Assembly: GCA_963701665.1 (NCBI GenBank) | Contig: OY969622.1 | Location: forward strand, 288,001 to 352,000 | From: Candidatus Babeliales bacterium | GTDB lineage: Bacteria; Babelota; Babeliae; Babelales; JANWKD01 | Length of the DNA: 64,000 nt | Direction of reading: 5' to 3' | Part shown: one piece after another, positions 28,749 through 50,751 of the stretch | Layout of the letters: every line of letters begins with the position of its first letter | Position numbering within the stretch: the stretch's first letter is position 1 | Position numbers and translations under genes: made by a program | The notes under the pieces: generated by a model | Seen by the model: only the letters and a program-made list of their open reading frames with translations | What the model was told of the DNA's origin: nothing | The model's database searches: none

Positions 28749-28861
28749 TGTCATCCTGAGGAGCGAAGCGACGTAGGGATCTAGAATTTTAATAAGTTCC
28801 TTTAATGAATTAATTTTATAGACCTGGATTCCTACGACAACTCTGTTGTCTCAGAATGACA
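28749..28861. repeat. TGTC-tagged REP-like palindromic element, copy A (divergent)
   Basis: tgtcatcctgag...ctcagaatgaca terminal stem, inner cgtagggatctag/ctggattcctacg stem, AT-rich core related to copies B-E. Confidence 0.75.
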
Positions 28862-29023
28862 TCCTATTGCTTTCCTAGTACTTCTTGCTTAGAGAAAAAT
28901 TTTAATTTTCGGACAAGCTCTAAAATATTCATTTTAAAATTCTTTTTTTGCAAACCGGAAACATAGTATAGTAATAGTGATTTTTAAAATCTCGATGATC
29001 TTTGCAAAAAAAGGTGATAGACA

Positions 29024-29554
29024 ATGCAAAGAACGTATCAACTCTTTTTTATTTCTTTATCAATAATTCTTTTTTTTGTGCGCATATCATGTGCTATGGA
29101 CCCAGTGATAAAAGAAGGATTATTTTGGGAGTCAGTAAAGGGTCATGAAAAAATGCTTCTTGAAAGGCTTTATACTCGGGGAGAGGGTTTTGACTCAATA
29201 AAAGATACCGATGACAACCTCATTGCCTCTATTGATTGGCGGAATGATTCTTTCTATACCTTTTGTCCCGATCAAGAAACAGTGTTACTTAATTATAGAA
29301 TTAAAGCAGCAAAAAAACTTTTGCAATTGAAGGTACCGATACCGCGAACACAGGAGATGACTGAATCATGTGTGCCGTGTGTGGAAGAAACCATGCCGTT
29401 ATTTGCGTCACCAGCATTGCCACATGATAAAGCAGAAAGCGAATACGGACATGCAGTGGAAACTTTGCAGCGATCCTATCGCAAATATTTTGTTGGTGAA
29501 GATGAAAACACTACGAATGTGCGGTGCTCTTGTTGGGGATGTTGTCTCTATTAA
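29024..29554 (+). CDS. Secreted hypothetical protein with Cys-rich C-terminus
   Basis: Signal peptide ending SCA-MDP; ends RCSCWGCCLY. Confidence 0.75.
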   Translation: MQRTYQLFFISLSIILFFVRISCAMDPVIKEGLFWESVKGHEKMLLERLYTRGEGFDSIKDTDDNLIASIDWRNDSFYTFCPDQETVLLNYRIKAAKKLLQLKVPIPRTQEMTESCVPCVEETMPLFASPALPHDKAESEYGHAVETLQRSYRKYFVGEDENTTNVRCSCWGCCLY

Positions 29555-29571
29555 GGTTGTGGACATTAGCT

Positions 29572-30108
29572 ATGATTAAAAATTTTTTATTATGCACGGT
29601 TCTTCTTTCGTGGTGCTTATTTGATGTGTGTATGGAAGAGCAACCGGAACGAGCACTCAGTAATAGTGATATTGATGAAGTCAAATTTTATGCCCATTGG
29701 CGAGGTTATGAAGAAGAAGCGCGTGCGGCTATTCGGTTAAAAAAAACTCATAAAAAAAAAATAAAGATAAAAGATCCAACACGAGGAAAATTGGGTGTTT
29801 TTAACCCCAAAGATGGAGATGGAACGGGCTTAGTCACAAGTTTTTTTGTTGATGGCCAATTAAAGATGTCTTATTCAGCCTTTATTTTGCGTCTAAGAAA
29901 TAATGATAATTTTGAACAAAAACCGCTCGAGTATTATCAACAATTACCATCACGCAATGGTGTTAAGATTGATAACCCCAAGGAGCAGCAATTTATGACA
30001 ATCTATCACAACCTCGCTGACGGAGTAGGATCAAAACCTGAAACGCTAGGTGAAGAAAAATATCTTATTCAAAAAAAGAAAAAATGTTGGTGTTGTAGTC
30101 TTAATTAA
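29572..30108 (+). CDS. Secreted hypothetical protein with polybasic/Cys C-terminus
   Basis: Signal peptide ending DVC-MEE; ends QKKKKCWCCSLN. Confidence 0.75.
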   Translation: MIKNFLLCTVLLSWCLFDVCMEEQPERALSNSDIDEVKFYAHWRGYEEEARAAIRLKKTHKKKIKIKDPTRGKLGVFNPKDGDGTGLVTSFFVDGQLKMSYSAFILRLRNNDNFEQKPLEYYQQLPSRNGVKIDNPKEQQFMTIYHNLADGVGSKPETLGEEKYLIQKKKKCWCCSLN

Positions 30109-30144
30109 GTTTTTAAACCTGCAAAAAAGCGAGGGAAAAAGCTC

Positions 30145-30639
30145 ATGAAAGTAGTAATGCCTATGTTGAGCATGTTGATATGCTTGCTCTTGATAAAAAA
30201 TACCGACGCTATGACAACGAACGACAATGATAAGGTCGTTAACGTGAACAAACTTCTTGAACACTGGGCAAATAGAGAACAACATCTTTTGCCACATGTA
30301 AGGCAAGCGCAACAGGATAAATCGCATATTGCATCATATGTTAGTGATGATGGAAGACTCCAGGCCACATTTGATGGTACCAATGATAGGGTAACATCCT
30401 ATTTTGATGATGGAAATACCTGTGAAGTTACGGTCGTCTATCTTTATAATCTGCTTTTTCCCCCTCGAGGATTTTTACGTGATGGCAAAATCTACGATCG
30501 AGATGGTAACATGGTTGCTGACGTTTCAATCGGATCTTGCTATGGAACATCACCAAAAAATTCTAAGAAAAGAAAAAATTATCTGAAATCGTTCAAAGAT
30601 TATTGCACAACAAAATTAACGAGACGATTAACGACATAA
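30145..30639 (+). CDS. Secreted hypothetical protein
   Basis: GAGGG RBS; signal peptide ending TDA-MTT; 3' end overlaps leuS by 40 nt. Confidence 0.65.
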
Positions 30640-33044
30640 ATTATTTTCTTAACATCTTTGCCCTCGAGATGTTTATAAACAAGTTGCTCGGCGCGCGCTT
30701 CAACAACTTTTTGTTCTGTGTCGCGTGCGATGGTTAAATTCGCGCGCATTTTACCATTTACTTGTACGACAATAATAACCATGTGTTCTTCCGCCAAACG
30801 CGCGTCAAACTGTGGCCATGTGCATTCTTCCAACTTTTTATGCACGAGCGTTTGCAAAAGTTCGCTGGAAAAGTGAGGTGCCATTGCCGAAAGTGCCACC
30901 AAAAGTTGCTCCAAGGTTTTCTTGCTCAAACGCATGGAATGTGCGGTTGCATCATTTAACCATTCCATTGCTGCTGAAAGTGCTGTGTTTGGTTTAAAGA
31001 GATCAAGCCGTTCTTCCCATGCCTTCAAAAATTGATGGAAGCGTTGGGTAACTTCTTGGGTCTCTTGTTCATTGTCAGCAAGCACGGTTTTTGGTTCGGT
31101 CAAATAATCCCACAATTTATTTAAAAATCGTTTGATGCCCTCAAGGCCATTATCTTGCCACACGCAATCAAGTTCTGGCGGCCCCATGAATAAAATATAC
31201 ATGCGCAATACATCAGAACCATACTGCTGTACAATGTCATCAGGGTTTACCACGTTGCCTTTGGATTTTGACATCTTCTCAATGGCACCCGATAATTCTG
31301 AAAATTTGTTCACCATGCCTTGGTTGAATAAATGCGTGAATGGTTCATCAAAGGAAAGATACCCAAGATCATGCAATACTTTTACATAGAAGCGTGCATA
31401 TAACAAATGCAAAATAGCATGTTCAACACCGCCGACATATAAATCGACGGGCAACCAATATTTCATATCTTTTTCTGAAAATGCTGCAGTTTCTAAATGA
31501 GGATTTGGATAGCGCAAGAAATACCAACATGATCCGGCCCATTGTGGCATGGTATTTGTTTCGCGTTTTGCAGGGCCTTTGCATTGCGGGCATGTGGTAT
31601 TCACCCAGTCTTTAATTGCTGCAAGCGGCGACTCGCCAGTGCCGGTCGGATGATATTCTTCAACAGCGGGCAATTCCACCGGCAATTGCTCTTCTGGCAC
31701 AGGAACGATGCCGCACTTGGCACAATGAATTAATGGAATTGGTTCACCCCAATAGCGTTGGCGCGAAAAGATCCAATCACGAAGTTTGTAGGTAGTTTTC
31801 TTTTGCGCAAACCCTTTTTTGACCAAGTAGTCTGCCAATTGATTGCGAACGTCGGCAGCAATTTTGCCAGCAAATTCAGCCGGTTCAGTTAATATGCCTT
31901 CTTGTGCATTATGAAAAGATACTTCAAATTTTTTTACTTTTTCTTGTAATTCTTTATCGTACGCTGGGAGTAACACTGCTTTGAGAGGAATATTATATTT
32001 TTTTGCAAAATTAAAATCTCGCTCATCGTGTGCAGAACATTTAACAATACCAGTTCCATAATCTGCTAAGACAAAATTAGCTACCCAAATAGGCAAATCG
32101 CCATTACCAAGAGGATCAACAATATAACGCCCGGTAAAAATTCCTTCAGGTTCTGCAATATCACGATCTTCACATCGTTTTTTTATAAGGTACTGACAAT
32201 AATCGAGAATTTCTTGTTTGTTAGGCACACCAACAAGGAGTTCAGGAAGTAACTTATGATCGGGTGCGATAGTTACAAAAGTATCGGCAAAACAACTTTC
32301 AAAGTGTGCTGAATAGGTTTGAATGGTTATATTAGAATCTTTTACGGGTGCAGTAAAAAGGAGCCCCTCGCTTTTGCCGATCCAATTGCGCTGCATTAAT
32401 TTTACTTTTTCAGGCCATTCGAGTGTATCGAGGCCATCAAGTAATTTTTGCGCATACGAGGTAATACGCAAAACCCATTGTGGAATCTTTTTTTGCTCAA
32501 CTGGAGTGCCACAGCGTTCACAACAACCATCAATGACTTCCTCATTAGCAAGACCCGTTTTATCAACAGGGCACCAATTAATTGGCATGTTTGATTCGTA
32601 GGCAAGGCCAGCTTTATACATTTGCAAGAAGATCCATTGCGTCCATTTATAGTAATGGGGATCAGTGGTATTAAGTTCTTTGGACCAATCATAGAGTGCA
32701 CCAACTTCCATTAACTGTTTTTTAAAGTGGGCAATATTTTTTGCAGTGCTTATCTGCGGCAAGATACCTTTTTTTATAGCATCATTTTCTGCAGGAAGCC
32801 CGAAAGCATCCCAACCCATTGGATGTAATACATTGTAGCCTTGTAACCATTTCTTGCGTGCAAAGACATCAGAGAGTACATAGCCGCGCCAGTGTCCTAC
32901 ATGCAGGCCCGAGCCAGATGGGTAGGGGAACATATCTAAGCAATAGTATTTTTTCCCATCACCAGTTGGGCGCGCTTGCCCTATTTTATGTTCAGCCCAA
33001 TACTGCTGCCATTTTTTTTCAACATCTTTAAACGGGTAACCCAT
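30600..33044 (-). CDS. leuS: Leucine--tRNA ligase
   Basis: [70 protein letters not shown]. Confidence 0.98.
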
Positions 33045-33103
33045 CTGATTCCTTACATGCACAAATTTATTTAATGTATATCATTGTAACATAGAGATTA
33101 TTT

Positions 33104-33988
33104 TTATTTAATCTCTGGCTTTTCTTTGTTCCAATAGTTTTGCCATTGCTCAATTTTTGTATGATACCAAATACGTGTAGCGGTAGATGGATGATCTCCG
33201 TTAATACCACTTGTATTACCGTTATGCGCAAGAAGTTTTGTATATAATTTTCTTCCTGCTCTGCCTCCTTGAGGAAGTACAAATGCAGCAATTATATCAC
33301 ACTCAGCTTCAACAGTTTTGTGCAAAAACGGATATTCTATTCTATTGGGACTTTCTATAGGAAGATCAAAACGCTCGAAGCAGTGCTGAGATAAATATCT
33401 ATTGAGTGCGATGCCGCTAACAAGGGTAATAGCGGTACCAGTGGCGAATCGCAACGGCTTTTTACGAGTGACACTGGCAGCAATGGTAACCGGTATCCAC
33501 ATTGGTGCTAATGCGGTGCACCCTACGCTCAAACCAAAAAAATGAAGGTTTGCCATGTGATAATGCGGATTTAGGTACGCATTATGTTCAAGTACAACAT
33601 GAGCCTGTTCATGAGCAAGTCTTGATTCTATTTCTTCTTGTGTAAGTTGGTCGTGTTGACGTGTCATATGAATGAGATTTCTACCATTGGTAATAGCATT
33701 ATTCCATGTTGAACAGCCATTCTGTTTTAACGTTTCAATCATGTCCGAGCTCATATATTTTACTAAAATGGCCGTATTTTTATGGAGATATCCTTTTTCT
33801 TGATATAAAGCGAGGGTATCTTGGTTAATTGTTTGAATTTCTGATGGTGCATCTTCTGTGCCGCATGCTGCAAGATAGTGTGTTTGTTCTTTTTCAATTG
33901 CCTCTTTAATATGCGGTGCCATGCCATAATTTACAGATGTTACTATGCTCATAAGAATAATAACAATCCATCTTTTTTTTATATACAT
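33104..33988 (-). CDS. Secreted M48-like zinc metalloprotease
   Basis: Signal peptide; LAHEQAH, EAECD, DHPSTATRI. Confidence 0.8.
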   Translation of the reverse strand: MYIKKRWIVIILMSIVTSVNYGMAPHIKEAIEKEQTHYLAACGTEDAPSEIQTINQDTLALYQEKGYLHKNTAILVKYMSSDMIETLKQNGCSTWNNAITNGRNLIHMTRQHDQLTQEEIESRLAHEQAHVVLEHNAYLNPHYHMANLHFFGLSVGCTALAPMWIPVTIAASVTRKKPLRFATGTAITLVSGIALNRYLSQHCFERFDLPIESPNRIEYPFLHKTVEAECDIIAAFVLPQGGRAGRKLYTKLLAHNGNTSGINGDHPSTATRIWYHTKIEQWQNYWNKEKPEIK

Positions 33989-34099
33989 GTAAAATTCCTT
34001 ATTATTTAAAAATAAAAAAATATAACAGTGTCCTTAAGAATAAAAATCCTAGAGGGGCACTAAACTTCGATTATATAAACAAAATAATTATGATTGCGC

Positions 34100-34243
34100 T
34101 TAAGCGCAAAATGAGAATAAACGTAAGGGGAACAGTAAGCTAAATGAGCTGTAGTTTAAGAGAAGAGAAATAGCCGAAATGATAGGCATAGTGGCAGATT
34201 TGCTGGAGGTACGAGAATAATTGGGTTTCATATCTGGCGACAT
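34100..34243 (-). CDS. 47-aa small ORF, possible leader peptide (not in ORF track)
   Basis: TAAGGAG RBS 6 nt before ATG; MSPDMKPNYSRTSSKSATMPIISAISLLLNYSSFSLLFPLRLFSFCA. Confidence 0.4.
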   Translation of the reverse strand: MSPDMKPNYSRTSSKSATMPIISAISLLLNYSSFSLLFPLRLFSFCA

Positions 34244-34432
34244 GAGAGACTCCTTATTAAAATAACGATACTAACTATTTCTAATATATCATAATTTTAT
34301 ACTTTTGCAAGAAATTTTTCAAATTGAGTTTTTTCCCTATTTTACAGGTAGGATTTTAGGAAAACATTGAATATTGGTTAATGGTAAAAATATACTAAAA
34401 GAAGATTATTTGAGGGATTTAAGGGGAAAGTA

Positions 34433-36409
34433 ATGAAAAAATCTATATTATTTTCTTGTGCACTCGTATGTTTTAGCATGCTTTGTGCGGAAGATTGGTT
34501 TGATTTTGCCTATAAAAATATAGAATATGTAACTGGTTTTTTTAAACCGCATAATGAAGCTTTATTCCAATCATATAAAAAACAAGTAACCGATTTACAG
34601 GATAAAATTACGGTTCTTCTCAAGCAGGCACAATCAAACGGTGTATTACCTGATGCAACAAAAAAAACCGTTGATGCGCTGCAAAAACAGCAAAACGCCT
34701 TGCTTGATAAAGCAACAAATGATTTAGATTCATATGATGTTACTATGCTGCAACAAATTGTTGGTAACCAGCAAGCAGTTATTGTGCAGCTTATAGATGG
34801 CTGGGATTATTTGTATGATTTTTGGGAAAAAAATGCGCTCGGCGCATTAAAGTCTGCAGCAAATCTTAACAATCCCTTTAGAAATAATGTCGCGAGTGTT
34901 GTGCAAGGTGATCAATTATTGCCTGATGAAAAAGATACCTTCTTAAAAAACCGACAAGCAACGGTGCAAAAAGGATTTACTACGTTTTTTAATCAACAAA
35001 AAAATCCCATTAAACTTGGCTATGTTGCTCCCGGTGGCGGCTATCGTGCCATGATATTAACAACGGGCTATCTCACGGCGCTCGAGGAAACAGGTCTTTT
35101 AGATGCAACGAGTTATTTGAGCGCGCTTTCCGGTTCTACGTGGTTTTTGATCGCGTGGTTATTTTCAAATATGTCGGTGCGCGCGTTTCGAGATGCACTC
35201 GTTTCGAAGGTACAAGATAAAAAATTTAATGTGCAAACGATCGCTTTTGATGCTTCAGGGTACATTGCAAATGATTATTTAGCATCGTTAGTTGCCGATC
35301 TGTGGCCGAAATTTTTATTTAATCAATCAATAAGTTCAGTTGATGTGTATGGATCATTATTATCACGCACCTTATTGAGTGATCTTGCAAAAAAATCTCA
35401 TTTAACTGATACATGGACACAAGTGAAAGATGGTAAAAAGCCGTTTCCGCTTTTTAGCGCCGTATGTGTTTATAATGATAATGTAGGAAAACAACAGTAT
35501 AGTTGGAATGAATTTACGCCGCTTGAAGTGAGAAATTTAGAATTTAAGCTCTCGACGCCAAGTTATTCTTTTGGTAGTGAATTTAATGCAGGAAAATCAA
35601 AAGAAATTGCGCCGCAACAAGCACTTGGCTATTTGATGGGGACTTTCGGTTCAGCATATTTATTGGATTTAATTGATCTTGAAAAAATTATCAGTGGGTT
35701 GAAAGATCAAGCAGCACAAAAGATGGGCAGTGAAGCAACGCAATACATCATTGCTGCAACATTAGTTAATCTAATCAACGTGTTGCCAACATGGGTTAAC
35801 AATGTACGCGTGTCTCCTTCATCGACATTCAATCCTTATAAAAATAGCACGTACGCAAATGTGCCGAAATCATTAACAACGAGTGATCAACTTATGTATG
35901 TTGATGCGGGAATTGCATGTAACGTTCCTGTTCTGCCGCTCTTGCGTTCATCGCGTCAAGTGCAGGCAATTATTATTGGTGATACATCAGGTGATAATCC
36001 TAAGGACAATGAAGAGCCTGGCGAGTTAAATAAATTTTTTGCTGATGCTAAACGCTTATATAGCTATGTGTATACCCGCGTTGATGATAAATCTACCCCA
36101 ACATTACGTTTGTATAAAGATATGCAACATCCAGCAGCCCCTCGCCTTATTTATGTTAATTTTGTTAAAGATGATGCGTTGCTAAAAAAAGCAAAAACAA
36201 ATCCTGCATTGCAAAAAATTATTGATGATTGCAAGCTCGCAACGTTTGATTTTAATTGTATTAATTATCAAGATGGCTTCTGCCGGTTTTTCAATTTTGA
36301 ATATACTGTTGAGCAATTTAAGCAATTGGCTGGCATCGGTGAATTTAATATTAGGGCGAATGTAGAAACTATAAAGGCATTTTTAAATAAAGAATTTTAT
36401 GGTAAGTAA
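34433..36409 (+). CDS. Secreted cPLA2/lysophospholipase-like phospholipase
   Basis: Signal peptide; PGGGYRAM, ALSGSTW (cPLA2 GLSGS type), EFTPLEV, LMGTFGSAY, YVDAG. Confidence 0.85.
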   Translation: MKKSILFSCALVCFSMLCAEDWFDFAYKNIEYVTGFFKPHNEALFQSYKKQVTDLQDKITVLLKQAQSNGVLPDATKKTVDALQKQQNALLDKATNDLDSYDVTMLQQIVGNQQAVIVQLIDGWDYLYDFWEKNALGALKSAANLNNPFRNNVASVVQGDQLLPDEKDTFLKNRQATVQKGFTTFFNQQKNPIKLGYVAPGGGYRAMILTTGYLTALEETGLLDATSYLSALSGSTWFLIAWLFSNMSVRAFRDALVSKVQDKKFNVQTIAFDASGYIANDYLASLVADLWPKFLFNQSISSVDVYGSLLSRTLLSDLAKKSHLTDTWTQVKDGKKPFPLFSAVCVYNDNVGKQQYSWNEFTPLEVRNLEFKLSTPSYSFGSEFNAGKSKEIAPQQALGYLMGTFGSAYLLDLIDLEKIISGLKDQAAQKMGSEATQYIIAATLVNLINVLPTWVNNVRVSPSSTFNPYKNSTYANVPKSLTTSDQLMYVDAGIACNVPVLPLLRSSRQVQAIIIGDTSGDNPKDNEEPGELNKFFADAKRLYSYVYTRVDDKSTPTLRLYKDMQHPAAPRLIYVNFVKDDALLKKAKTNPALQKIIDDCKLATFDFNCINYQDGFCRFFNFEYTVEQFKQLAGIGEFNIRANVETIKAFLNKEFYGK

Positions 36410-36631
36410 TACGAGTTCGATGAGTGACTATGCTGCAGGTAACGCATATTGGAAACAAAATTGTCATTGCGAGCGTAGCGTGGCAATCCAATTATAAAAT
36501 TAGTTCCTTTAAGGAATTAATTAAAGTTTGGATCCCCACGGTTCTGAACCCTGCGAAGCTTCAGCGAAGAAGGGCCAAAGCCTCGGGATGACATCTTTGG
36601 GTTTATTGCCTGCATGTCATTGAGTTAGCGT
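36409..36631 (+). repeat. Nested palindromic element, copy B
   Basis: Outer ends atacgagttcgat / attgagttagcgt; inner tgtcattgcgagc(36462)...cctcgggatgaca(36593); inserted hairpin ccctgcgaagcttcagcgaagaaggg. Confidence 0.85.
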
Positions 36632-36654
36632 TAAATGATAAAAGAAGGAGTGTC

Positions 36655-37070: not shown

Positions 37071-37314
37071 ACGCAAATTCGATAAATTAAAGTTGGCTGC
37101 GCGAAGATAACATTGAAAACAAATTGTCATTGCGAGCGAATGCGTGGCAACCCAGCTTATAAAAATTAATTCCTTAAGGAGTTATTAAAGTTCGGATTCT
37201 ACTTCGTTAAAACTTCGTAGAACAGGTCCCCCACAAGTCCTTCGAAGCTCGACAGAGCGAAGTAGGAACGGCTGGCGCCTCGGGATGACATTCTTGGGTT
37301 CATCGAATGTGCAT
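37071..37314 (+). repeat. Nested palindromic element, copy C
   Basis: Outer acgcaaattcgat / atcgaatgtgcat; inner tgtcattgcgagc(37125)...cctcgggatgaca(37290); two inserted mini-hairpins. Confidence 0.85.
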
Positions 37315-37994: not shown

Positions 37995-38046
37995 AACATA
38001 GCATTCAGATGCCCACTTTATATATGCTCTTTGTGCAGGGAGTAAA

Positions 38047-38102
38047 GCCCGGTCTTCGCTTGCAATAGAAGATCTTCGAAGCGAAATTGAGCTTCGACGG
38101 GC
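38047..38102. repeat. 56-bp hairpin repeat, copy 1
   Basis: gcccggtcttcgc...gcttcgacgggc; 49/56 identical to 62245-62300 by hand alignment. Confidence 0.8.
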
Positions 38103-38120
38103 GATGAAGGAGTACTAATT

Positions 38121-39724: not shown

Positions 39725-39763
39725 ATGTCTGTAGTATAACGATAAAAAAAGGAGAATATTTGT

Positions 39764-41164
39764 ATGAAGAGGATTATTTTTTTGAGTCTGTGTTTAGCGA
39801 GTAACACATGGGTAAGGGCTGATTTGTCACAGGATTTAACTACATTAACAGCACGATTAGATGTTTTGGCAAATGCCTTAAAACCCAGTATTAAACCAGT
39901 TACAATAAAGCCTGTGATTACTCAACCACTATTGCAAAATGTGCCAATAATTACTGCCCCAAACCTTCCTAGTGAAGTATCAAGTAAGCAATTGGCAGTC
40001 TTGTTGCCTGATACGCAAAGGACATTTCTGGAATTAGCAACTGATATGAATAAATTTATTAGAGTTTTAGGTAATTTCGTTCAATCTACAAAAGGTCAGG
40101 TGAATCCTATTGCAGCGCCTGCTCAAAGGAATCTTGTGCGTCTGCTTAATGATTTAAAAGTGTTACTAGATGAATATAATATGGAAGGAAAAATTTATAC
40201 ATTAAAAAATTTGATAGAAAAAATTAATCAATTGAGATCACAAGCTTCAACTGAAGATGCAAAAGTTGTTTCTAAATTCTTAACAGATATTCTCAATGAA
40301 ATCAATAAGTTTCTCCAATATCTAGATAAGGTTTATGTGGAACATGAGAAGCCATGGGAACGAGTTATTTTTACATTTAACCCTGATGTCAAAGGATACT
40401 CACAGAAAGCATCTGCAACATATCATTTTGATCATGCAGTTATACATCGTGAGGCAATAGACAGATTATTGAATATTGTTGCAGACATTGAACAAATGTT
40501 GCCCTATTGGAAAAATGTTGCTGAAACTAAAGTGCAAGGTGGTGCTCCGTCACCAACAAAACAAAACATAAAGCTTTCTCGGGTAGAAATCTATAGCCCA
40601 AAGAATATAGATGAAGAATTACAAAAGAAAGTTAATGTTGTTCATGCTGCATATGAGATTGTTCAAGGTGATATGTTTAGTGTTGCAGTAGCACTTAATG
40701 ATTTTCTGGGGGAATTAACCGACCCAACAGTGATATCTGCTGCTTTTGAAGATCTCATGCAGCGTTATAGTGATCTTCAAAAAAGGATTCTAACATTCAA
40801 AGATACTTTAGAAAATAATCTTTCATCGGTAGAAGGTCTAAGTGGCAACAGCCGTGTAGAAGTGTATAAATTTCTAAAATCCATCAGAAAAGATTTTAAA
40901 TATTTTGCCAGAGACATAAGCAAGAAAATTGATGATAATGCTCATGAGTTGCAATTACCTTTGTTAACATATAAAGGAAAATCAAATTCTGCATGGCATT
41001 TTGTTCTGAGCTTAATTTATCACTTGGGTCCAAGTAGAATGTTGAAACCTGCCCATCACAGAGTATCTCCTCGTGAGGGTGGTGGTTATCAAAATGAACC
41101 TTGGCCAGACACTTTTGCTGATGAATTCAAAAAGATAATGAAAAGTTGGATGCCAAAACTATAA
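39764..41164 (+). CDS. Secreted helical hypothetical protein (tandem paralog 1)
   Basis: AAGGAG RBS; signal peptide; N-terminal ~260 aa highly similar to the next gene. Confidence 0.8.
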   Translation: MKRIIFLSLCLASNTWVRADLSQDLTTLTARLDVLANALKPSIKPVTIKPVITQPLLQNVPIITAPNLPSEVSSKQLAVLLPDTQRTFLELATDMNKFIRVLGNFVQSTKGQVNPIAAPAQRNLVRLLNDLKVLLDEYNMEGKIYTLKNLIEKINQLRSQASTEDAKVVSKFLTDILNEINKFLQYLDKVYVEHEKPWERVIFTFNPDVKGYSQKASATYHFDHAVIHREAIDRLLNIVADIEQMLPYWKNVAETKVQGGAPSPTKQNIKLSRVEIYSPKNIDEELQKKVNVVHAAYEIVQGDMFSVAVALNDFLGELTDPTVISAAFEDLMQRYSDLQKRILTFKDTLENNLSSVEGLSGNSRVEVYKFLKSIRKDFKYFARDISKKIDDNAHELQLPLLTYKGKSNSAWHFVLSLIYHLGPSRMLKPAHHRVSPREGGGYQNEPWPDTFADEFKKIMKSWMPKL

Positions 41165-41174
41165 TTGCTATTTT

Positions 41175-41207
41175 AAAGGAGCGCGGTGAAGCGCTCCTCT
41201 AACTTTT
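41175..41207 (+). terminator. Terminator, duplicated with the paralog
   Basis: ggagcgc-ggtgaa-gcgctcc followed by ctaactttt; near copy at 42737-42772. Confidence 0.7.
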
Positions 41208-41260
41208 TATTCCTCATAGCTATATATATGATCATGAACGAAAAAAAGGAGAATGATCGC

Positions 41261-42700
41261 ATGAAAAAGATTATTTTTTTGAGTATATGCTTAGTAAGTG
41301 GCACAGTTCTAAAAGCTGATGTGCGACAGGACTTGTCTATATTAGCAATGAGTTTGAATACTTTGGCAGAAACATTGAAGGTGCAGCCTGTTATAAAGCC
41401 TATAATTCCCCCTCAACAACCACCGCAAAAACCACCATTGCAAAATGTGCCAATAATTACTGCTCCAAACCCTCCTGGCCAAGTATCAAGTAAGCAATTG
41501 GCGGTCTTGTTGCCTGATGCGCAAAGGACATTTATGGAATTAGCAACTGATATGAACCAATTTATTAGAATTTTAGGTAGTTTCGTTCAATTTACAAAAG
41601 GTCGGGTGAATCCTATTGCAGAATCTGCTCAACTTAACGATTTAGCTGTGTTGCTTAGTCAAAGATTTATGGGCGACAAAATTTATACGTTAAAAAACTG
41701 GATAGACAAAATTAATCAATTAAGATCACAAGTATCACCTGAAGATGCAAAAATTGTTTTTGCATTTTTAGCGGATATTCTGGATCAAATTGATAACTTT
41801 ATGCGTTATCTAAATGAAGTTTATGATAAATATAAGGCTGAATGGGAACGAGTCACTTTTGTATATAAATATCCTTTCGAAGGGTATGCGCAGAAAGCCC
41901 CTGCAAGTTATCATTTTTATAATACAATTATTCAGGTTGGAGCAATAACCAGATTAGAGAATGTTGTTAAGGATCTTAAACAGATGTTGCCATATTGGGA
42001 AAAGCGAGCTGAAACTAAAAAGCAAGGTGGTGCGCAAATAGCACAGGGAAAATTTACTCCGATAATACCGCCTCCTGCTGAAATTCAAGTAGTACCTTCA
42101 ATTGCTAATTTCGAGGATATTAATTTGGCGTCAATTGGACTTCCTCTGGATCAAGCTGCGGGCGACTTTGAAGGTTATATGCATGCTGTGATTGAAAAAG
42201 TGGAGGAATTTCTGAAGAAAGTTGTGTCATCAGATAAAGATTTACGCATATTTAATGAACTTGTTGCTTTAATTAAAAAATTCCAAGATGTTTCTAAAAG
42301 ATTGAACGATGAATTAATTGATTTTAATAAACAGTCAAATCAGTTTACTCAAGAGGATGCCAAGATTGTTGTTAAATTCTTAAAAGGTATACAGACAAAT
42401 ATGAATAATTTTAATCAATGGATTACAGCAGCTGACCAAAGAAATTTTTCTAATTTACAAAACATTAGGTTTATATATAAAAGTCTTGTGATGACACCAA
42501 ATGCTCCAGCTGGTGATAAATTTATAGAATTTGTTGTAACACCTATTAGTCAAATAATGCAAAGAGGTACTGAGCCTAATTTGGCAAATGTGTTAAATGA
42601 TTCTATCTTGGATTGGGAGGAGAAAGTTAATCCTTCTACTTCGCCAATAGGTGGAAAAGGTCCAGGGTATGAAAAGGTGGAATCTTGGATTAACACATAA
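41261..42700 (+). CDS. Secreted helical hypothetical protein (tandem paralog 2)
   Basis: AAGGAG RBS before ATG 41261; shares PLQNVPIITAPN...KQLAVLLPD.QRTF.ELATDMN...QMLPYW with 39764..41164. Confidence 0.8.
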   Translation: MKKIIFLSICLVSGTVLKADVRQDLSILAMSLNTLAETLKVQPVIKPIIPPQQPPQKPPLQNVPIITAPNPPGQVSSKQLAVLLPDAQRTFMELATDMNQFIRILGSFVQFTKGRVNPIAESAQLNDLAVLLSQRFMGDKIYTLKNWIDKINQLRSQVSPEDAKIVFAFLADILDQIDNFMRYLNEVYDKYKAEWERVTFVYKYPFEGYAQKAPASYHFYNTIIQVGAITRLENVVKDLKQMLPYWEKRAETKKQGGAQIAQGKFTPIIPPPAEIQVVPSIANFEDINLASIGLPLDQAAGDFEGYMHAVIEKVEEFLKKVVSSDKDLRIFNELVALIKKFQDVSKRLNDELIDFNKQSNQFTQEDAKIVVKFLKGIQTNMNNFNQWITAADQRNFSNLQNIRFIYKSLVMTPNAPAGDKFIEFVVTPISQIMQRGTEPNLANVLNDSILDWEEKVNPSTSPIGGKGPGYEKVESWINT

Positions 42701-42736
42701 TTTGCCTACGTTTTTTGCTGTTTAATCTTGATGGTT

Positions 42737-42772
42737 AAAGAGGAGCGCTGTTAAGCGCTCCTCTTACTTTTT
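42737..42772. terminator. Terminator between convergent genes
   Basis: aagaggagcgct-gtta-agcgctcctctt. Confidence 0.8.
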
Positions 42773-43274: not shown

Positions 43275-43442
43275 GCCAGGGCCTTTCTTCTTGATAAATG
43301 ATAAAAGTATGCTGTTAATAATATCATACTATTGTCAATCAGACAATTTCTATTTGTATAGCAGGGCAATCCTTGCCGAAAGGGAAGCTTTTCTGTTAAC
43401 CTTTAATAGGACTTAGTGATTAGCAGAAAAAATAGGTGTTTT

Positions 43443-44633: not shown

Positions 44634-44674
44634 TTTTTTGTGGATCTAGTATTCTGAAAGCTAAGTAAGTCTTT

Positions 44675-45421
44675 TCAACGTGCTCGTGCATGCACGATGC
44701 AAGAAGGTCCGCTGCTACGCAACCAAAGATCTTTATGGAAATAAACAACGTCAAAGCCTGCTTTTTCAAGAAGGTCTTTAAGTTCGTCATCACTATACCA
44801 GACAAGCTGTAAAAGCTCATTTTCTTGTTCTTGCACGATGCCATTGACTAAAAGTTCATAAAAACAAAGTGCATCAGCTTGTTTTCGTTCAAGATTAAAA
44901 ACATAACGAGTGGTTAAACGAATTTTTTTGCTTTCATCAAGAGTTACTAATCGAACGTATGATTCTTCATTAATTTCAGGAACAAAAATATCAAGTAAAA
45001 GATCTCCATGCTGGTGCATGTGCAAGTGAAGTTTTTGTAATGCTTGTAATGCTACGTCTTTATTGGTGATGAGCTGAAATGAAGCAACGGCAATAGTCAC
45101 CGTAGTATATTTGTGTGGCACATTGAGATTTTCAAGTGATTGTTCATAGAGATTTGCTGCAATATGTGCTTGTGCACATCGTTGTCGACACCGTTCGAGC
45201 ATACTTGGAGAATTATCTACACCATCAACATAGTATCCACGCTGCACGAGTGGGATTAATAGTCGGCCAGAACCACACATCGCTTCTAAAATTCTGCTTT
45301 CGTCTTTTTTCATGAATGAGCTGTAGAAATCAAGTTCACGTTCGGTTGCAAATTTTTTGGTAGCATCATAAAACATGCTACATAATTTGCCGTAAGCAGT
45401 GACTTGTGATGTTTTGTTCAT
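44675..45421 (-). CDS. Class I SAM-dependent methyltransferase
   Basis: ILEAMCGSGRL, VDGVDNSPSML. Confidence 0.88.
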   Translation of the reverse strand: MNKTSQVTAYGKLCSMFYDATKKFATERELDFYSSFMKKDESRILEAMCGSGRLLIPLVQRGYYVDGVDNSPSMLERCRQRCAQAHIAANLYEQSLENLNVPHKYTTVTIAVASFQLITNKDVALQALQKLHLHMHQHGDLLLDIFVPEINEESYVRLVTLDESKKIRLTTRYVFNLERKQADALCFYELLVNGIVQEQENELLQLVWYSDDELKDLLEKAGFDVVYFHKDLWLRSSGPSCIVHARAR

Positions 45422-45486
45422 AAGTATTTAATTTCCGCACATGAATTCATTATGAAACTGGCATTAACAAAAAAGGCAGATAATTT

Positions 45487-45639
45487 TTATTTTCTATGAG
45501 CACCCATGTGCCGTGCTCTAATACTTGCTTCTGCTTTTTCGCGTGTGCTTGAATGTGCAATCACTTTCCATTTTCCACGTTCATGTTTCAGGATTGGCCA
45601 TCCTTTAGTTTTTGTTTTTCTGCCAACTTTATAGGGCAT
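45487..45639 (-). CDS. 50-aa basic small protein (not in ORF track)
   Basis: AAGGAG RBS; MPYKVGRKTKTKGWPILKHERGKWKVIAHSSTREKAEASIRARHMGAHRK. Confidence 0.7.
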   Translation of the reverse strand: MPYKVGRKTKTKGWPILKHERGKWKVIAHSSTREKAEASIRARHMGAHRK

Positions 45640-45715
45640 AGTAACTCCTTTTACTATAAAAAGAGTTTACAAATTTTATCAAAATTCATTCAAGAGAACT
45701 AAGGTTTTCTCGTTG

Positions 45716-45958
45716 ATGCGGATTCGATATAAATTGTGCAATCAGCAAGAATGTCTTCCCGAGGCTTTAGCCGTGGGGATCCAGAACTTTAATAAATTCC
45801 TTAAAGGATTAATTTTATAATTGGATTCTACTTCGTTAAAACTTCGTAGAACAGGTTGCCAGCTCCTTCGAAGCTCGTAGAGCGAAGTAGGATCGCAATG
45901 ACAATTTTGTTTTCAATGTTGCCTTTGCGTAGCCAAATTCAATGTATCGAATTTGCAT
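45716..45958 (-). repeat. Nested palindromic element, copy D (reverse orientation)
   Basis: Outer atgcggattcgat / atcgaatttgcat; inner tgtcttcccgagg(45752)...cgcaatgaca(45903); same two mini-hairpins as copy C. Confidence 0.85.
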
Positions 45959-46527
45959 TATTCATCTTTATATCTGCACGATTGGCAGGTGATGAATTCC
46001 CATGCAATTTTTTTCAATTCACGTAATTCCGGTGCCGTAGACCAATAGTCGGGATCTGCGTGTAATTGAGTTTCGAGAAAGTTAATCAAAGGGGATACTT
46101 TATTGCCTATTTCTCGATTTTTTATGCGGTATGCTTTGTAGGCAATGGTAAGGGGTGTTTCATGATGATCATTAACATCGTTAACTTCAAGACCATTCTC
46201 ATATACTAAGGTGCGTAAAAGTGGTTTGTATCTTTCAATAAGATTATCAAAACTGGAAGCATGTTTTTGAGCTACTAAGTTTTCCACTATGCAATGAATA
46301 AGACCGTTATGAGGTCCATAATGATAGGATCTTAATGTTTTTGCTGGAAGCTTATCTAATTCTCTTTTGATTGATTTAGGATGGAAAATATGGTGTTGAA
46401 TGAAATCTTCGAGTGCCACATCAGATGGTAATGATTCGGATGGTTCTGCTATTTGTACTTGTTCCTGTTCCATGCATTGCGATGTTATAACTATAAAGCT
46501 TGCCAAAATTGATGTAATGATTTTCAC
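45958..46527 (-). CDS. Secreted hypothetical protein with ankyrin-like segment
   Basis: GTG start after AAGGAA; signal peptide SQC-MEQ; GLEVNDVNDHHETPLTIA. Confidence 0.65.
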   Translation of the reverse strand: MKIITSILASFIVITSQCMEQEQVQIAEPSESLPSDVALEDFIQHHIFHPKSIKRELDKLPAKTLRSYHYGPHNGLIHCIVENLVAQKHASSFDNLIERYKPLLRTLVYENGLEVNDVNDHHETPLTIAYKAYRIKNREIGNKVSPLINFLETQLHADPDYWSTAPELRELKKIAWEFITCQSCRYKDE

Positions 46528-46536
46528 GTTGTTCCT

Positions 46537-46920
46537 TTATCTACCTCTTTGTAGTGCAGCTGCGTAATTGAATTGGTAAAAATAATCTTGCCAAAATTTA
46601 TCCGTTGAAGAATATACATTATCATACATGAAGTAGTCAATGAGGCATTCGCGAACAAGAAGGAGCTCTTTTAATGTGCCATTTTTATGTTTCGGATCTG
46701 CAATAGTAAAATCTAAAAGTTCTATTGCTCTTTCAAATGCATCATGACTATATTCTAAGTTCCCTTTGTTTCTCCATTGAATGGTACGATCAACATCGCA
46801 TCCAACATTTGCTAATTGTTCCAAAACAGAAAATTTGAACCAACGGCCTTCGGCAAGTGTTGAATGTATGATTTTTTTCTTTTTTAAATCTTCGATAGTT
46901 TTTTCTCTTGTTATACGCAT
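46537..46920 (-). CDS. Conserved hypothetical protein
   Basis: HSTLAEGRWFKFSVLEQLANVG.DV.R...W...AFERAIELLDFTI.D.K pattern recognised from environmental bacteria; start uncertain (46920-47001). Confidence 0.7.
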   Translation of the reverse strand: MRITREKTIEDLKKKKIIHSTLAEGRWFKFSVLEQLANVGCDVDRTIQWRNKGNLEYSHDAFERAIELLDFTIADPKHKNGTLKELLLVRECLIDYFMYDNVYSSTDKFWQDYFYQFNYAAALQRGR

Positions 46921-47020
46921 GTGTTCTTGAGTATACATGATGTCCAATGAATCCGAGCAGATTGCTATAAAATTGCAAAAATATATAGCATAGTATAACA
47001 AAAATATGTCGAAAGCATAA

Positions 47021-47062
47021 AAAAAAGAGCTTTCAAAAAGTGACTTTTGAAAGCTCTTTTTT
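47021..47062. terminator. Terminator hairpin (T-run on both strands)
   Basis: aaaaaagagctttcaaaa...ttttgaaagctctttttt. Confidence 0.8.
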
Positions 47063-47079
47063 AATACAGTTTTTTTAGC

Positions 47080-47463
47080 TTATTTTACAAACCAAAAAAC
47101 GAGTGCGTAAGCTATGAAGCGAGCAATGTGATAACCAGCGTCGATTAATAACACTTTAGTATCACGGCCTGAGAATTGGTAGTTGATGCATAATGAAAGT
47201 GCAACTAACACACCAACAAGCGCGCCTACAAAGATGTTCTGTTCTAATGAAGCTGAGTTCATTACTAATTTTTGGAATCCGATAGCAGCAAGAAGTGAAC
47301 ATATAAAGGAGATAACGTACGGCGTAAAACCGGCGTTTTTCATCTGTGTTTCGGATACGCCTGCAGCTTGTGCCCAGATTTTTCCAAATAGTACTGAGTA
47401 CCAAAGTGCGCCTAAAGCGAAGCTTGAAACAGTAGCGATTGCAACTGGTAATAAATTAAACAT
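47080..47463 (-). CDS. DUF1761 family membrane protein
   Basis: FALGALWYSVLFGKIW, LLIDAGYH. Confidence 0.85.
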   Translation of the reverse strand: MFNLLPVAIATVSSFALGALWYSVLFGKIWAQAAGVSETQMKNAGFTPYVISFICSLLAAIGFQKLVMNSASLEQNIFVGALVGVLVALSLCINYQFSGRDTKVLLIDAGYHIARFIAYALVFWFVK

Positions 47464-47698
47464 TAAAACCTCATTTGTTAATAGGTTAATATATATAAAC
47501 CAAGAATTATACTACTATGCAATATAATTCCTCTTTATAAGTTTATAGAAATTTATAAGTTTGTCCATACCAAATATTGTTTCAGATAGGATTATATGAG
47601 AAAATTTAACCTATTTTACCCTGTAATTTTCAGCGTACAAATTTTTAGGGTATAATGGTATAAAAATACCTCTATAAGCCCTTTTTTGGCAGCCCCCC

Positions 47699-48760
47699 TT
47701 GAAACCTCAAAACACTCTATTTCTTACCCCTCCCTTACTCTCCCCTGATCATATACGGGAGAAAATTGCCTGTATTCGTGCCCACCGTGAGCGGATTTTC
47801 AGGGTTGGCATTGAGGTATTGAAAGAAAAACTCATAGTCCATAATTATGGCCATGGCGGTGCCGGGTGGACGTTCCTTTTTGGGTGCGTTAATGAGGCTG
47901 TGCGCCAGTTCCAAAAGCAGGTGCCACAAAACCCTAAATGTGCGCCAAAAATCAAGGTGATCGGCGCAGGTTGTTATGGCCTGTTGACTGCCATAACGCT
48001 GTTCAAAAAAGGGTATGATGTTTCCTTAGTGGCGCACGCGCTAGAAGAACTTCCCTCAGGCAAAGCCGCGGGCTTCTTTTTCCCGAGGGCACGCAAATGC
48101 TCAACGCCTCAAGAACGAGCTGAGTTTTTTGCGCGAGCGCGCGAATCATATCAACAATACCTCAACATTATCGAGGGCAGTCATCCGTTTTTGAAACGAG
48201 GGCCGAAGTTGGTGCCCGCATATTTTGGCCCGGATATTGATCCTGGTTTTGCTCCGTTCATTGAAGAAGGGCTTATTGAAAAACCTGAACGAGTGAGCAT
48301 TTCATTCGGTGGCAGCAAAATATATGATGTGCTGGCGTATAACATTGTTTTTATTAATCCACCGGTATTAATGCAAGAATTATGGTGTGTTTTTAACGAG
48401 TGCGCTATACCAATCGAGCGTCGAGAAATTCGCTCGTTTGACGAGATTCAAGAATCGATCATTTTCAATTGCGCGGGCATGGGGGCCAAAAAGCTTGCCA
48501 ACGATATGCGCATGGTTCCTGTGCAAGGGCATTTAATTACGCTAAAAAATCAACCAGATGTTACCGCATTACAATATCTTCTTAATGTGAAAGTTGTCAT
48601 GCACGATGAACATGGCAGAGTGCGTGATGAGCTTGTTTATTTTGCGCCGAATGGCGAGGGGATTCTGGGTATTACTTTTTTGCGAGGGCAATCTGAAGCG
48701 AGTGCCAACCAGCATGAATTCGAGCGACTTTTAAAGCGTAGTCGTGATTTTTTTGGGTAA
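47699..48760 (+). CDS. D-amino acid oxidase-like flavoprotein, circularly permuted
   Basis: IRAHR and IVHNYGHGGAGWT precede the Rossmann VIGAGCYGLLTA; SGKAAG, IFNCAGMGAK, PVQGHL. Confidence 0.8.
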   Translation: MKPQNTLFLTPPLLSPDHIREKIACIRAHRERIFRVGIEVLKEKLIVHNYGHGGAGWTFLFGCVNEAVRQFQKQVPQNPKCAPKIKVIGAGCYGLLTAITLFKKGYDVSLVAHALEELPSGKAAGFFFPRARKCSTPQERAEFFARARESYQQYLNIIEGSHPFLKRGPKLVPAYFGPDIDPGFAPFIEEGLIEKPERVSISFGGSKIYDVLAYNIVFINPPVLMQELWCVFNECAIPIERREIRSFDEIQESIIFNCAGMGAKKLANDMRMVPVQGHLITLKNQPDVTALQYLLNVKVVMHDEHGRVRDELVYFAPNGEGILGITFLRGQSEASANQHEFERLLKRSRDFFG

Positions 48761-48822
48761 TGACAAGCATGTTCTTGCAAAAAACGAGTGCAGTTCAGTA
48801 CAGTTACGAAAGAAAGGATTGT

Positions 48823-49248
48823 ATGAGTGCACTTATTGTTCGAGATGATGTTGTTATTCCTGAAGCAGAATTAGAAATTACGGCAAGTACTGCTGGTGGT
48901 CCCGGCGGCCAACATGTCAATAAAACTGCTTCACGCATTACCATTCGCTGGAATGTCAAAAATTCTGCAGCGCTGACTGATGAGCAAAAACAGCGCGTCA
49001 TGGATAATCTTGCATCGCGGTTAACAACAGAAGGAGATTTTATGGTGCACAACAGTGAATCACGTAGTCAACAACACAACAAAAAAAATGCGCTCAATCA
49101 ACTTGCTCATGAAATTCGCAAAGCACTGCATGTACCAAAGAAACGTATGAAAACAAAAATTTCTGAAGGTGCCAAAGAAGTGAGGCGCAAGCAAAAATCA
49201 CATCGCTCTGAAATCAAAAAAATGAGAAGCAAAAAAATCGACTACTAG
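48823..49248 (+). CDS. arfB: Alternative ribosome-rescue factor B (peptidyl-tRNA hydrolase)
   Basis: GGPGGQHVNKT, RSQQHNK, basic C-terminal tail. Confidence 0.92.
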   Translation: MSALIVRDDVVIPEAELEITASTAGGPGGQHVNKTASRITIRWNVKNSAALTDEQKQRVMDNLASRLTTEGDFMVHNSESRSQQHNKKNALNQLAHEIRKALHVPKKRMKTKISEGAKEVRRKQKSHRSEIKKMRSKKIDY

Positions 49249-49383
49249 AGGTTAATATCAACTCGTGACATTTTGTCACGAGTTCGATCTTTTTTTATTA
49301 ATCAAAATCTTACGTACTATGTATTATTTGTACGTTGTTACATTGTGCAGCAGAAATAATATTGGAAACAAAATTGTCATTGC

Positions 49384-50561
49384 TGTATGTGTTCAGAGTT
49401 TCGGTGAATAATTTTTGGCACAAAGAGACAAGCAGAGTTAAATTGAAAATTTTTTAATTCCCTTAAACGGGTGTGCTCGATTCCTTCAACAAAGCTGATG
49501 GAATTTTACCATCCAAACCTTGATGGGGCCGATGTTCATTATGATAGAAATTATAGCCAAGAACAGCATCTTTTAGTTCATCAATTGTGTTAAATATAGA
49601 TCCTTCAATAACTTCATCATCAAAAGAACGCCAAAATCTCTCAATTTTTCCATTTGTTTGAGGCTTATAAGGGAGGGTTCTTCGGTGCTTAATAGCAAAA
49701 TGAAGTAGCAATCTTTCAAAAGGATGATTTTTTAATCTTTCTGGACCTGAACAAAATTCAGCACCATTATCAGTTAAAGCTTCATCAAATGTGATACCGT
49801 ATCGTTGGTTCATATGCAAAATGATATCCATCATAGCAAAAGTCACATCTATTGCTTTGAGAGATTCAATTACTTCAACCCAAACTATTCTAGAGAAGTC
49901 ATCAATAACTCCCAGCACAAAATATTTCTTTTTAGGTTCAGATTGCACAATTTCTTTAGGTAAGTAATGGCAATCTATATGGGCTAATGACCCTGCGAAT
50001 GTTCTCACGATCTTTCTTTTTTCCTCTTGTACTCGTTTAGTTAACTTAGAAACGCCATATTTTCGTAATGTTCGATATACTGAACTTGCAGAACAACCCT
50101 TTTTAATCAAGGGATTTTTTTTGAGGGCTGCGGCAATAACATACCTATTTAAACCTGATTTCCGATACTCTAAAATTTGTTTTACAAGACTATCATCTGC
50201 AAGCGGCATTTCTTCAAACTTAGGCTTGGGACCGCGTCTTATAGGCAACAAAAGTTCGGGAATTTCCTGAGCAGCTTTGTAGCGTCTGTAAAGCTTATAA
50301 AAATTCTGAAAACAGAGTTCTCTGGCTTCAAAAAATTCTCGAACACGCTTAAATTGAGGGTGTTTTTTTGACTTAACAAGTTCGTATTCTTCCACATATT
50401 TTAGCATATATTTAATTGAATTGCTTGCTAAAGTACGATACGATGTATTTATACCCATAAAAGGAACTCCTGTTAAAATTGTTAATATTTGCATATTTAA
50501 TTCTAACTCTGATTTCCCTTTGTGGGTATCTTTTTATTCACCGAAATTATGAACTTCTACA
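49384..50561 (-). mobile_element. IS481-family insertion sequence (1178 bp)
   Basis: TGT...ACA termini; 28-bp IRs tgtatgtgttcagagtttcggtgaataa / tgtagaagttcataatttcggtgaataa (23/28); flanking direct repeat ATTGC. Confidence 0.9.
49463..50458 (-). CDS. DDE (rve) transposase, IS481 family
   Basis: HIDC, VIDDFSR, LTDNGAEF, YKPQTNGKIERFWR, HNEHRPHQGL; single ORF; GGAG RBS before Met at 50458. Confidence 0.92.
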   Translation of the reverse strand: MGINTSYRTLASNSIKYMLKYVEEYELVKSKKHPQFKRVREFFEARELCFQNFYKLYRRYKAAQEIPELLLPIRRGPKPKFEEMPLADDSLVKQILEYRKSGLNRYVIAAALKKNPLIKKGCSASSVYRTLRKYGVSKLTKRVQEEKRKIVRTFAGSLAHIDCHYLPKEIVQSEPKKKYFVLGVIDDFSRIVWVEVIESLKAIDVTFAMMDIILHMNQRYGITFDEALTDNGAEFCSGPERLKNHPFERLLLHFAIKHRRTLPYKPQTNGKIERFWRSFDDEVIEGSIFNTIDELKDAVLGYNFYHNEHRPHQGLDGKIPSALLKESSTPV

Positions 50562-50751
50562 ATTGCGAGCGCAAGCGTGGCAATCCAATTATAAAATTAG
50601 TTCCTTTAAGGAATTAATTAAAGTTTGGATCCCCACGGCTAACGCCTCGGGATGACATGCCGGTATTCATTGCGCTAATTAGAAGTTACAACTTCAGTCC
50701 GTGACAAAATGTCACGACCTCACTTGCCTCTGAAATTAAGCGATGCTTGTA

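Follow-up and report, generated by a model that had tools for sequence, protein, structure and literature searches.

How do hairpin repeats that carry no transposase spread through a genome? The question is raised by a stretch of 64,000 nucleotides from Candidatus Babeliales bacterium (assembly GCA_963701665.1, contig OY969622.1, positions 288,001 to 352,000; hereafter the window), in which a nested palindromic repeat occurs five times, as copies A to E. The genome, called G000, is a single contig of 1.34 Mb with 37% G+C and a completeness of 93.6%. The phylum set used for comparison holds 261 genomes; G001, G003, G004 and G028 denote other genomes of the phylum, and L-numbered loci are stretches retrieved from other genomes. 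We find it probable that the copies are nested hairpin pairs of the kind that flanks genes for small Ssn-like GIY-YIG nucleases, and that copies B to D, in which the pair lies inside the ends of an insertion sequence (IS) of the IS982 family, were spread as a MITE (a miniature transposon with inverted repeats) by an IS982 transposase apparently since lost from G000. The repeats likely show one route by which transposase-less hairpin repeats spread. The copies are as follows, in window coordinates.

28749..28861, plus strand: copy A, a head-to-head pair of GTC-tagged hairpins without a shell
36409..36631, plus strand: copy B, a hairpin pair (36463-36592) enclosed by a shell of IS982 type, with ends at 36409-36421 and 36619-36631
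37071..37314, plus strand: copy C, a shell and hairpin pair (37126-37289)
45716..45958, minus strand: copy D, a shell and hairpin pair (45753-45902)
49360..50657, plus strand: copy E, a hairpin pair (49376-50656) split by an IS

An earlier sequence-only reading had described these five copies, and all are present where it placed them, with an abundance that genome-wide counts put far above chance. Each copy has about 95-137 relatives in G000 by blastn, and the matches of all five merge to about 130 loci. One hairpin head is found 87 times and the other 111 times, where shuffled sequence yields 2-4; for the core palindrome, at one mismatch, the figures are 119 and 6-8. A census of the genome found 249 heads, made up of 89 head-to-head pairs and 71 unpaired heads. 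With up to two mismatches allowed, 24 of the 89 pairs have both outer ends, 26 have one and 39 have none. A count of AT-rich cores (83 of the 89 pairs) comes from a loose pattern without a control and is not relied on. The window has no match in Rfam at gathering thresholds.

All but three of the 89 pairs lie outside open reading frames (ORFs) of at least 100 aa. The three that lie wholly inside long ORFs (G000:C1:12667-12768, 269998-270107 and 715790-715899) are possible in-frame insertions, for which the palindromic elements of Rickettsia offer a comparison. G000 also has five identical-scoring Y1 transposase genes and one broken one. In RAYT/REPIN systems, with their GTAG REPs, the repeat flanks a gene of this kind; here a comparison of nearness places repeat loci close to two of the intact genes and to the broken one. 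Three of these Y1 (IS200-like) genes stand in tandem, spaced 566 bp apart, at G000:C1:1253004-1254495, and two others are elsewhere.

The core of the repeat consists of two (C/T)GTC-tagged hairpins, each with an ATCCA-like tail, that face inward across an AT-rich spacer. In every tabulated end, GTC is preceded by T or C. The class to which the core had been assigned, that of (C/T)GTC-tagged palindromes resembling repetitive extragenic palindromes (REPs), fits it in tag, short stem, CCA tail, head-to-head dimers and intergenic position. The stem ascribed to B through E alike requires correction for D, which reads GTCATTGCGATCC and CCTCGGGAAGAC rather than ...GCGAGC and ...GGGATGAC because a mini-hairpin takes the place of its loop.

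The same hairpins flank nuclease genes. Four of the eight small stand-alone GIY-YIG genes of G000 (Pfam PF01541) are bracketed by inverted GTC hairpins and encode single-domain proteins of about 95 aa. Across the phylum, the GTC-hairpin motif lies within 300 bp of 26 of 29 Ssn-like homologs, as against 1 of 29 far segments. One of the Ssn-like proteins, of 94 aa, is encoded at G000 166516-166800. In the Ssn-like protein, Y7, Y18 and E65 are spaced as Y6, Y17 and E64 are in SsnA (residues from PMC11893778), and a PDB search with it returned no relative. The sequence-only reading, correct as to the five-copy element, had seen neither this nuclease partner nor the second GIY-YIG family described below.

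The outer shell ends in the 13-mer ACGYRARTTCGAT, usually with TA just before it. As had been described, an outer inverted repeat of this sequence is carried by B, C and D; A and E are without it, the shell interior of E being decayed and its 13-mer ends not recognisable. Conservation of the 13-mer extends genome-wide: an end with at most one mismatch occurs at 40 of 127 loci, compared with 1.3% of random windows, and by a looser rule both ends occur at 35 of 127, compared with 0.8%. Perfect target duplications of 5-7 bp flank 7 of these 35 two-ended copies, where 0.74 would be expected with flanks shuffled (a count reached in 0 of 5000 shuffles), and at the level of the family the duplications are of TA..TA form. 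Shelled elements are mostly about 160-270 bp, short, non-coding and multi-copy as a MITE is.

The suggestion that these ends resemble IS982 termini is borne out by full-length elements in the phylum, where the same 13-mer forms the ends of transposase (PF13612) elements of about 1 kb. Among the best 30 PF13612 loci from the 261 phylum genomes, 23 are bounded by a pair of 13-mers about 0.8-1.0 kb apart, and 13 of the 23 are flanked by perfect duplications 5 bp or longer; one of the 30, L040, carries ACGCGAATTCGAT at both ends. The pairs were located with a one-mismatch pattern, which makes the consensus partly circular. Set against the IS982 family consensus, 5'-AC(N)6T(N)5TT, the ends have the AC and the T at position 9, while the TT at positions 15-16 is unconserved, including in the full-length elements of the phylum. 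A reading of the shell as a TA-duplicating IS630/Tc1 element was rejected because the duplications are 5-7 bp. The IS982 ends likely let a transposase spread the hairpin pairs as a MITE.

Where the pairs themselves come from is suggested by their centres. Three of the four Ssn-like genes of G000 end in TAAGGA, and the AT-rich centre of the core matches the TAAGGAA stop-codon side of these genes. In copy A, each half aligns to the sequence after the stop codon of a different ssn gene, over 46 of 53 and 49 of 59 columns. The pairs may thus have arisen by fusion of the 3' ends of two nuclease cassettes or, less probably, the genes may have recombined into existing pairs.

A locus in the same genus points to another derivation. 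At G001:C3:532870-533392, an intact ssn-like gene, 81% identical to that of G000, stands between hairpins that in turn stand between the same IS982 ends, with a near-duplication TATTA/TATAA. This is exactly the cassette (end-hairpin-ssn-hairpin-end) of which the MITE would be a deletion derivative, loss of the gene having left the AT-rich spacer as a scar. One end is also present beside the ssn gene of G003 locus L136, the closest ssn cassette of G000 has a decayed outer inverted repeat, and 15 bp of the left spacer half are also found in the upstream flank of two ssn genes. However, both ends occur at only 1 of the 33 ssn loci examined, and what this left half resembles along its entire length, to TTCCTTA, is the post-stop flank in reverse, not the pre-start flank. 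Copy A, without a shell, has the same centre. We therefore hold the deletion of an IS982-ended cassette to be an unlikely source, and prefer capture of ready-made, gene-less hairpin pairs between IS982 ends.

How the shelled copies multiplied can be judged from their divergence. In 16 aligned shelled copies, similarity is 59-64% in shell interiors, 73-76% at the ends and 87% in the cores. The low figure for the interiors suggests an old burst followed by decay, with the cores kept alike. The contrast between core and shell could also mean that the hairpin pair is itself the mobile unit, its movement started by Ssn, and that it repeatedly invaded pre-existing IS982 MITEs as targets. The same mini-hairpin-bearing core variant is found in different shell types and in shell-less copies, 39 of the 89 pairs have no shell, and a core-less MITE of another family exists in G028: L054:170-345, close to a full IS982, is an element of about 170 bp that has IS982 ends but lacks a GTC hairpin pair. 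Against repeated invasion, an empty shell was not found in G000, where all 30 left and all 12 right profile matches had a hairpin head. The distance from core to shell end is also nearly fixed (mostly 50-62 bp on one side and 25-57 bp on the other), and duplications bordering the shell-less pairs themselves are unconvincing (2 of 39, with 0.28 expected, at loose offsets). We consider such invasion improbable, more so than derivation from a cassette, and amplification of pair and shell together remains the reading that we favor.

Several observations weigh against that reading of IS982-driven spread. Perfect duplications are absent at B, C and D, so that the earlier statement that the outer ends lack a target duplication is right for these copies and fails for the family, with its seven perfect cases. 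No transposase with matching ends, which the sequence-only reading had proposed to look for, was found in G000; its only IS982 transposase (PF13612, above the NF033520 cut-off) has the different ends TAGTCGAA. In the family of G000, a matching-ended IS982 occurs only in G004, where it is broken. Covariation between left and right shells is weak (Mantel rho 0.21, p 0.04; other pairs 0.08-0.25; 21 copies), less than simple whole-element transposition predicts, and shell and core distances likewise covary only weakly. A shell end could not be recognised in 39 of the 89 pairs, so that a role of IS982 in the origin of every copy is not demonstrated. An empty allele at strain level was not found, the flanks at site C being too diverged to place junctions. 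On the side of the hairpins, the published degenerate SRM pattern has one exact match in G000, outside the repeat family, and matches 0 copies of the repeat. Because of this mismatch, and with cd10448 no more than a candidate family for the protein, we say only that the hairpin-gene arrangement appears to work like Ssn/SRM, and do not claim that it is Ssn/SRM.

G000's own IS982 was considered as parent of the shell and rejected because its ends differ. This intact, single-copy IS982-family element, at G000:C1:26200-27135, has the atypical TAGTCGAA ends and adjoins a copy of the repeat.

The composite recurs outside this genome. For a CGTC hairpin of the type GTCATTGCGAG, the strict composite pattern was found in 4 of the 261 phylum genomes, and in 15 stretches of a species collection, Babeliales records among them. 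Four of five loci in Treponema are two-ended with perfect 6-8-bp duplications, read by eye, and the fifth is cut by a contig end. Nostoc has one locus with both ends, and Tannerella has three loci with one end. Two of the 15 stretches, L118 and L121, are probably chance matches, and at one mismatch a far end is missing from L115, L124, L126 and L128.

Comparison of orthologous sites gives a partial answer to the check for empty sites that had been proposed. The intergenic gap orthologous to site C is free of the element in G001, G003, G004 and L199, and no empty allele was found at strain level or to the base. A metagenome scan with the neighboring NUDIX gene returned 57 loci, the best at 74% protein identity, too distant for base-level empty sites, and no closely related strain turned up. 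A listing of sequencing runs came back empty, which counts neither for nor against. At the position of copy C, the metagenome relative L199 has a different, near-perfect long palindrome (L199:2690-3000). A related element lies behind the gene orthologous to that at D in G001, and D may accordingly be an old shared insertion.

The placement of the repeat also bears on whether it serves the host. The outer ends had been seen to overlap neighboring stop codons at 36409 and 45958, and they do: the first base of B completes the TAA of gene 34433-36409, and that of D the TAA of gene 45958-46527. Genome-wide, 39 of 56 shell ends form TAA, and in 8 of the 39 this TAA is the stop of a long ORF, a share that is 6.7% in the background of non-coding or stop TAA (p 0.004). 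The overlap comes about because the target TA and the first A of the element together make TAA, and such stop-forming insertions are as expected if they are tolerated. They might instead reflect a host function for which the repeats are kept, such as transcription termination, protection of mRNA ends, or Ssn-based restriction of incoming DNA as in Neisseria. The excess of stop codons would fit such a function, as would the location of 86 of the 89 pairs outside long ORFs, the better folding of single strands than of shuffles (z about -2.6), and the persistence of an element behind the same gene in G001. Any insertion that is tolerated would nevertheless show an intergenic bias, three relatives lack the element at site C, and interruption by an IS and by mini-hairpins is tolerated. 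Maintenance for a host function thus appears very improbable, the most so of the readings weighed here, and the elements are most likely selfish or neutral.

Two further kinds of element are nested in the hairpins. The first is a mini-hairpin of the form CTTCG-loop-CTTCG, 26-30 bp long, of which the window holds the following, together with a gene that is its likely partner.

36549..36574, plus strand: mini-hairpin of the second family, within the right hairpin of B
37197..37227, minus strand: 30-bp mini-hairpin, a clean insert immediately ahead of the ATCCA tail in the right hairpin of C
37238..37267, plus strand: second mini-hairpin of C, in opposite orientation, read from the sequence
45826..45856, minus strand: 30-bp mini-hairpin ahead of the ATCCA tail, left hairpin of D
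45864..45892, minus strand: mini-hairpin in place of the loop, left hairpin of D
62392..62634, minus strand: 80-aa GIY-YIG gene of a second subfamily, likely partner of the mini-hairpin
62682..62710, minus strand: free-standing hairpin of the mini-hairpin family, directly upstream of the 80-aa gene

G000 has 48 mini-hairpins, against 0 in three shuffles, and 47 of them lie inside core hairpins. Their points of insertion are fixed. Of 22 copies with a CAGG-type tail, 19 are clean 30-bp inserts immediately ahead of the ATCCA tail and three lie at GCG/ACG in the stem; none shows a duplication beyond one ambiguous base. The remaining four small GIY-YIG genes of G000, the 80-aa gene among them, belong to a clade separate from the Ssn-like one (30 versus 30 sequences, support 1.0). 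When a profile built solely from 20 distinct nested modules of G000 was run over the 200 bp upstream of second-family genes in other genomes, its score exceeded 14 for 24 of 29, compared with 2 of 53 far segments, 2 of 29 upstream flanks of ssn and 4 of 200 random windows of G000. It passes at three of G000's own four second-family genes. A narrower regular expression hit only 1 of the 29 and was too narrow, so the profile was used instead. A tRNA or tmRNA gene is present in 22 of the 29 second-family loci. These associations suggest that the predicted second nuclease may write the mini-hairpin modules. A literature search on cd10449 and GIY-YIG found no paper.

A 60-bp hairpin repeat of the second family, its copies 87% alike, was also observed. 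It stands alone behind the NUDIX gene at 38046-38105 and again at 62244-62303, directly downstream of the 80-aa GIY-YIG gene. A similar repeat precedes a GIY-YIG gene behind a tRNA-like sequence near position 645300 of G000.

The second nested element is the IS within copy E.

49384..50561, plus strand: IS481-like IS of 1178 bp with TGT...ACA ends, within copy E
49463..50494, minus strand: its transposase, 343 aa, rve_3

IS481 elements have TGT...ACA inverted ends, a single ORF and a short duplication, and the element in E agrees in all of these. NF033577 (IS481) is the best family for its transposase, at 162.9 bits and E 1e-47, below the cut-off of 224. The duplication is the 5-bp ATTGC at 49379-49383 and 50562-50566. 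The hairpin sequence considered as the transposase target is GTCATTGCG. G000 has three identical copies, all three at GTCATTGC with the 5-bp ATTGC duplication and in both orientations; the chance of three out of three at the motif, if any ATTGC would serve, is about 5e-6. In G001, all four copies are at GTCATTGC. The duplication is present at three, one of which another insertion has split, and the fourth has the motif inverted on both sides. A relative in G003, with 69% identity, is at a hairpin end with a GTGAC duplication. At E 1e-40 the transposase occurs in 3 of the 261 phylum genomes only, and no plasmid match was found at E 1e-30. Locus L270 (region of G004:C1:645885-645955) has an IS982 end followed by GTCATTGC and by a solitary IS481-like end of 18 bp that leads into an unrelated gene, which suggests a scar of the same targeting from which the remainder of the element was lost.

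The sequence-only reading had noted this IS but neither its specificity for the hairpin nor the existence of many pairs (39 of 89) that lack a recognisable shell. Its wider proposal, a MITE with a captured REP that served as landing pad for smaller modules and an IS, agrees with the 13-mer and the duplications of the family, and the fixed insertion points of mini-hairpins and IS alike bear out the landing pad.

From sequence comparison, the order of events that we infer would be as follows. Gene-less hairpin pairs would first have formed by joining of the 3' ends of two nuclease cassettes at the stop codon. IS982 ends would then have enclosed one or a few pairs, which multiplied in an old burst. 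The cores may have been kept alike, at 87%, by swapping or gene conversion, for which nicks made by Ssn in single-stranded DNA are a possible trigger. Hairpins of 26-30 bp from the second GIY-YIG system would have been copied into fixed points of the hairpin, and an IS481-like element would recently have used the repeat as a safe, multi-copy target.

A bolder proposal, which we offer as a possibility and hold in some doubt, joins these layers into a hitch-hiking chain across phyla. Two families of tiny GIY-YIG nucleases would each run their own hairpin repeat: IS982 would spread Ssn pairs and whole ssn genes, the second family would write its 26-30-bp hairpins without duplication into the Ssn hairpin, and a clade of IS481 would have specialized on the motif. 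If true, the chain would provide CGTC REPs with the mobiliser they have lacked, and very small repeats that insert precisely with a candidate enzyme. The multiplication of CGTC REPs is still to be explained: Di Nocera et al. 2013 detected no transposase for them, and Chenal et al. 2025 identified a nuclease partner without transposition. One route could be tested directly by a standard transposition assay, given the IS982-ended shells and their target duplications in Babeliales and Treponema. The link of the mini-hairpin to the second, 80-aa GIY-YIG protein is a candidate new pair of site-specific nuclease and motif, and the IS481-like element, with its specificity for a hairpin head of 8-9 bp, would be a small natural targeting tool.

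Other features of the window were also noted. An M48-like gene and a phospholipase (PLA2_B) gene lie at 33104-36409, between leuS and a rhodanese gene, and are followed by copy B; in G001 and L199, leuS and the rhodanese gene occur without them. At 50752-52248 on the minus strand is a gene for a 498-aa MavL-like macrodomain ADP-ribosylhydrolase (PF16062, E 3e-123), conserved in G001, whose product resembles a Legionella effector family. An unrelated repeat of 51-84 bp has three copies at gene boundaries (59539-59589, 61802-61885 and 62821-62904), and tandem paralogous gene pairs lie at 39744-42419, 16767-19304 and 3854-4579, with 71-91% DNA identity in stretches.

Each layer of the composite, taken alone, is of a known kind. 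The combination, its recurrence across phyla and the second link of nuclease to hairpin were not found in the literature searched, a search that did not cover most subscription papers or ISfinder. The mini-hairpins recall the very small dispersed repeats (SDR) of cyanobacteria, said to have been described by Elhai et al. in 2008 (cited in PMC4390886) as hairpin modules of roughly 25-30 bp that reportedly insert precisely, without duplication, at fixed targets. Unlike SDR, which we compare by description only, the mini-hairpins resemble the hairpin found upstream of genes in a second family of small GIY-YIG proteins.

The remaining comparisons refer to the available portions of the papers cited. 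In the Ssn/NTS/SRM system (Chenal et al. 2025, PMC11893778), as here, a small single-domain GIY-YIG gene lies between inverted (C/T)GTC hairpins with an ATCCA-like tail, copies are many and dispersed, and catalytic residues have the same spacing; unlike here, those portions describe no IS982 shell, nested hairpins or targeting IS. The supplement, as far as available, includes one Babela genome, with no SRM and no ssnA. The CGTC REPs of Di Nocera et al. 2013 (PMC3733652) likewise have the (C/T)GTC tag, stems of 8-9 bp, a CCA tail, head-to-head dimers and intergenic positions, and Dependentiae are not among the phyla listed there. MITEs derived from IS982 are known (PMC9769881). The IS982 family (Fayad et al. 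2020, PMC7335449) and its MITEs, such as MITECca01 of Cardinium (PMC9769881), share with the shelled copies the 5'-AC ends, the conserved T at position 9, short variable duplications and a non-autonomous size of 160-270 bp. They differ in cargo, which here is a REP pair, and once an intact ssn gene, rather than transposase remnants. Unlike the IS982 family (PMC7335449), the shell does not keep TT at positions 15-16, and an intact parent with matching ends was not found in G000. No case of an IS481 element targeting a REP appeared in the literature searched. The known REP-targeting ISs, ISPpu9/10, ISPa11, ISPsy8, ISRm22, IS1397 and IS621 (PMC1525189; PMC3184786), insert, as here, at one fixed position of a multi-copy palindrome, whereas the present element is an IS481-like DDE element that makes a 5-bp duplication and has a hairpin of CGTC/Ssn type as its target.

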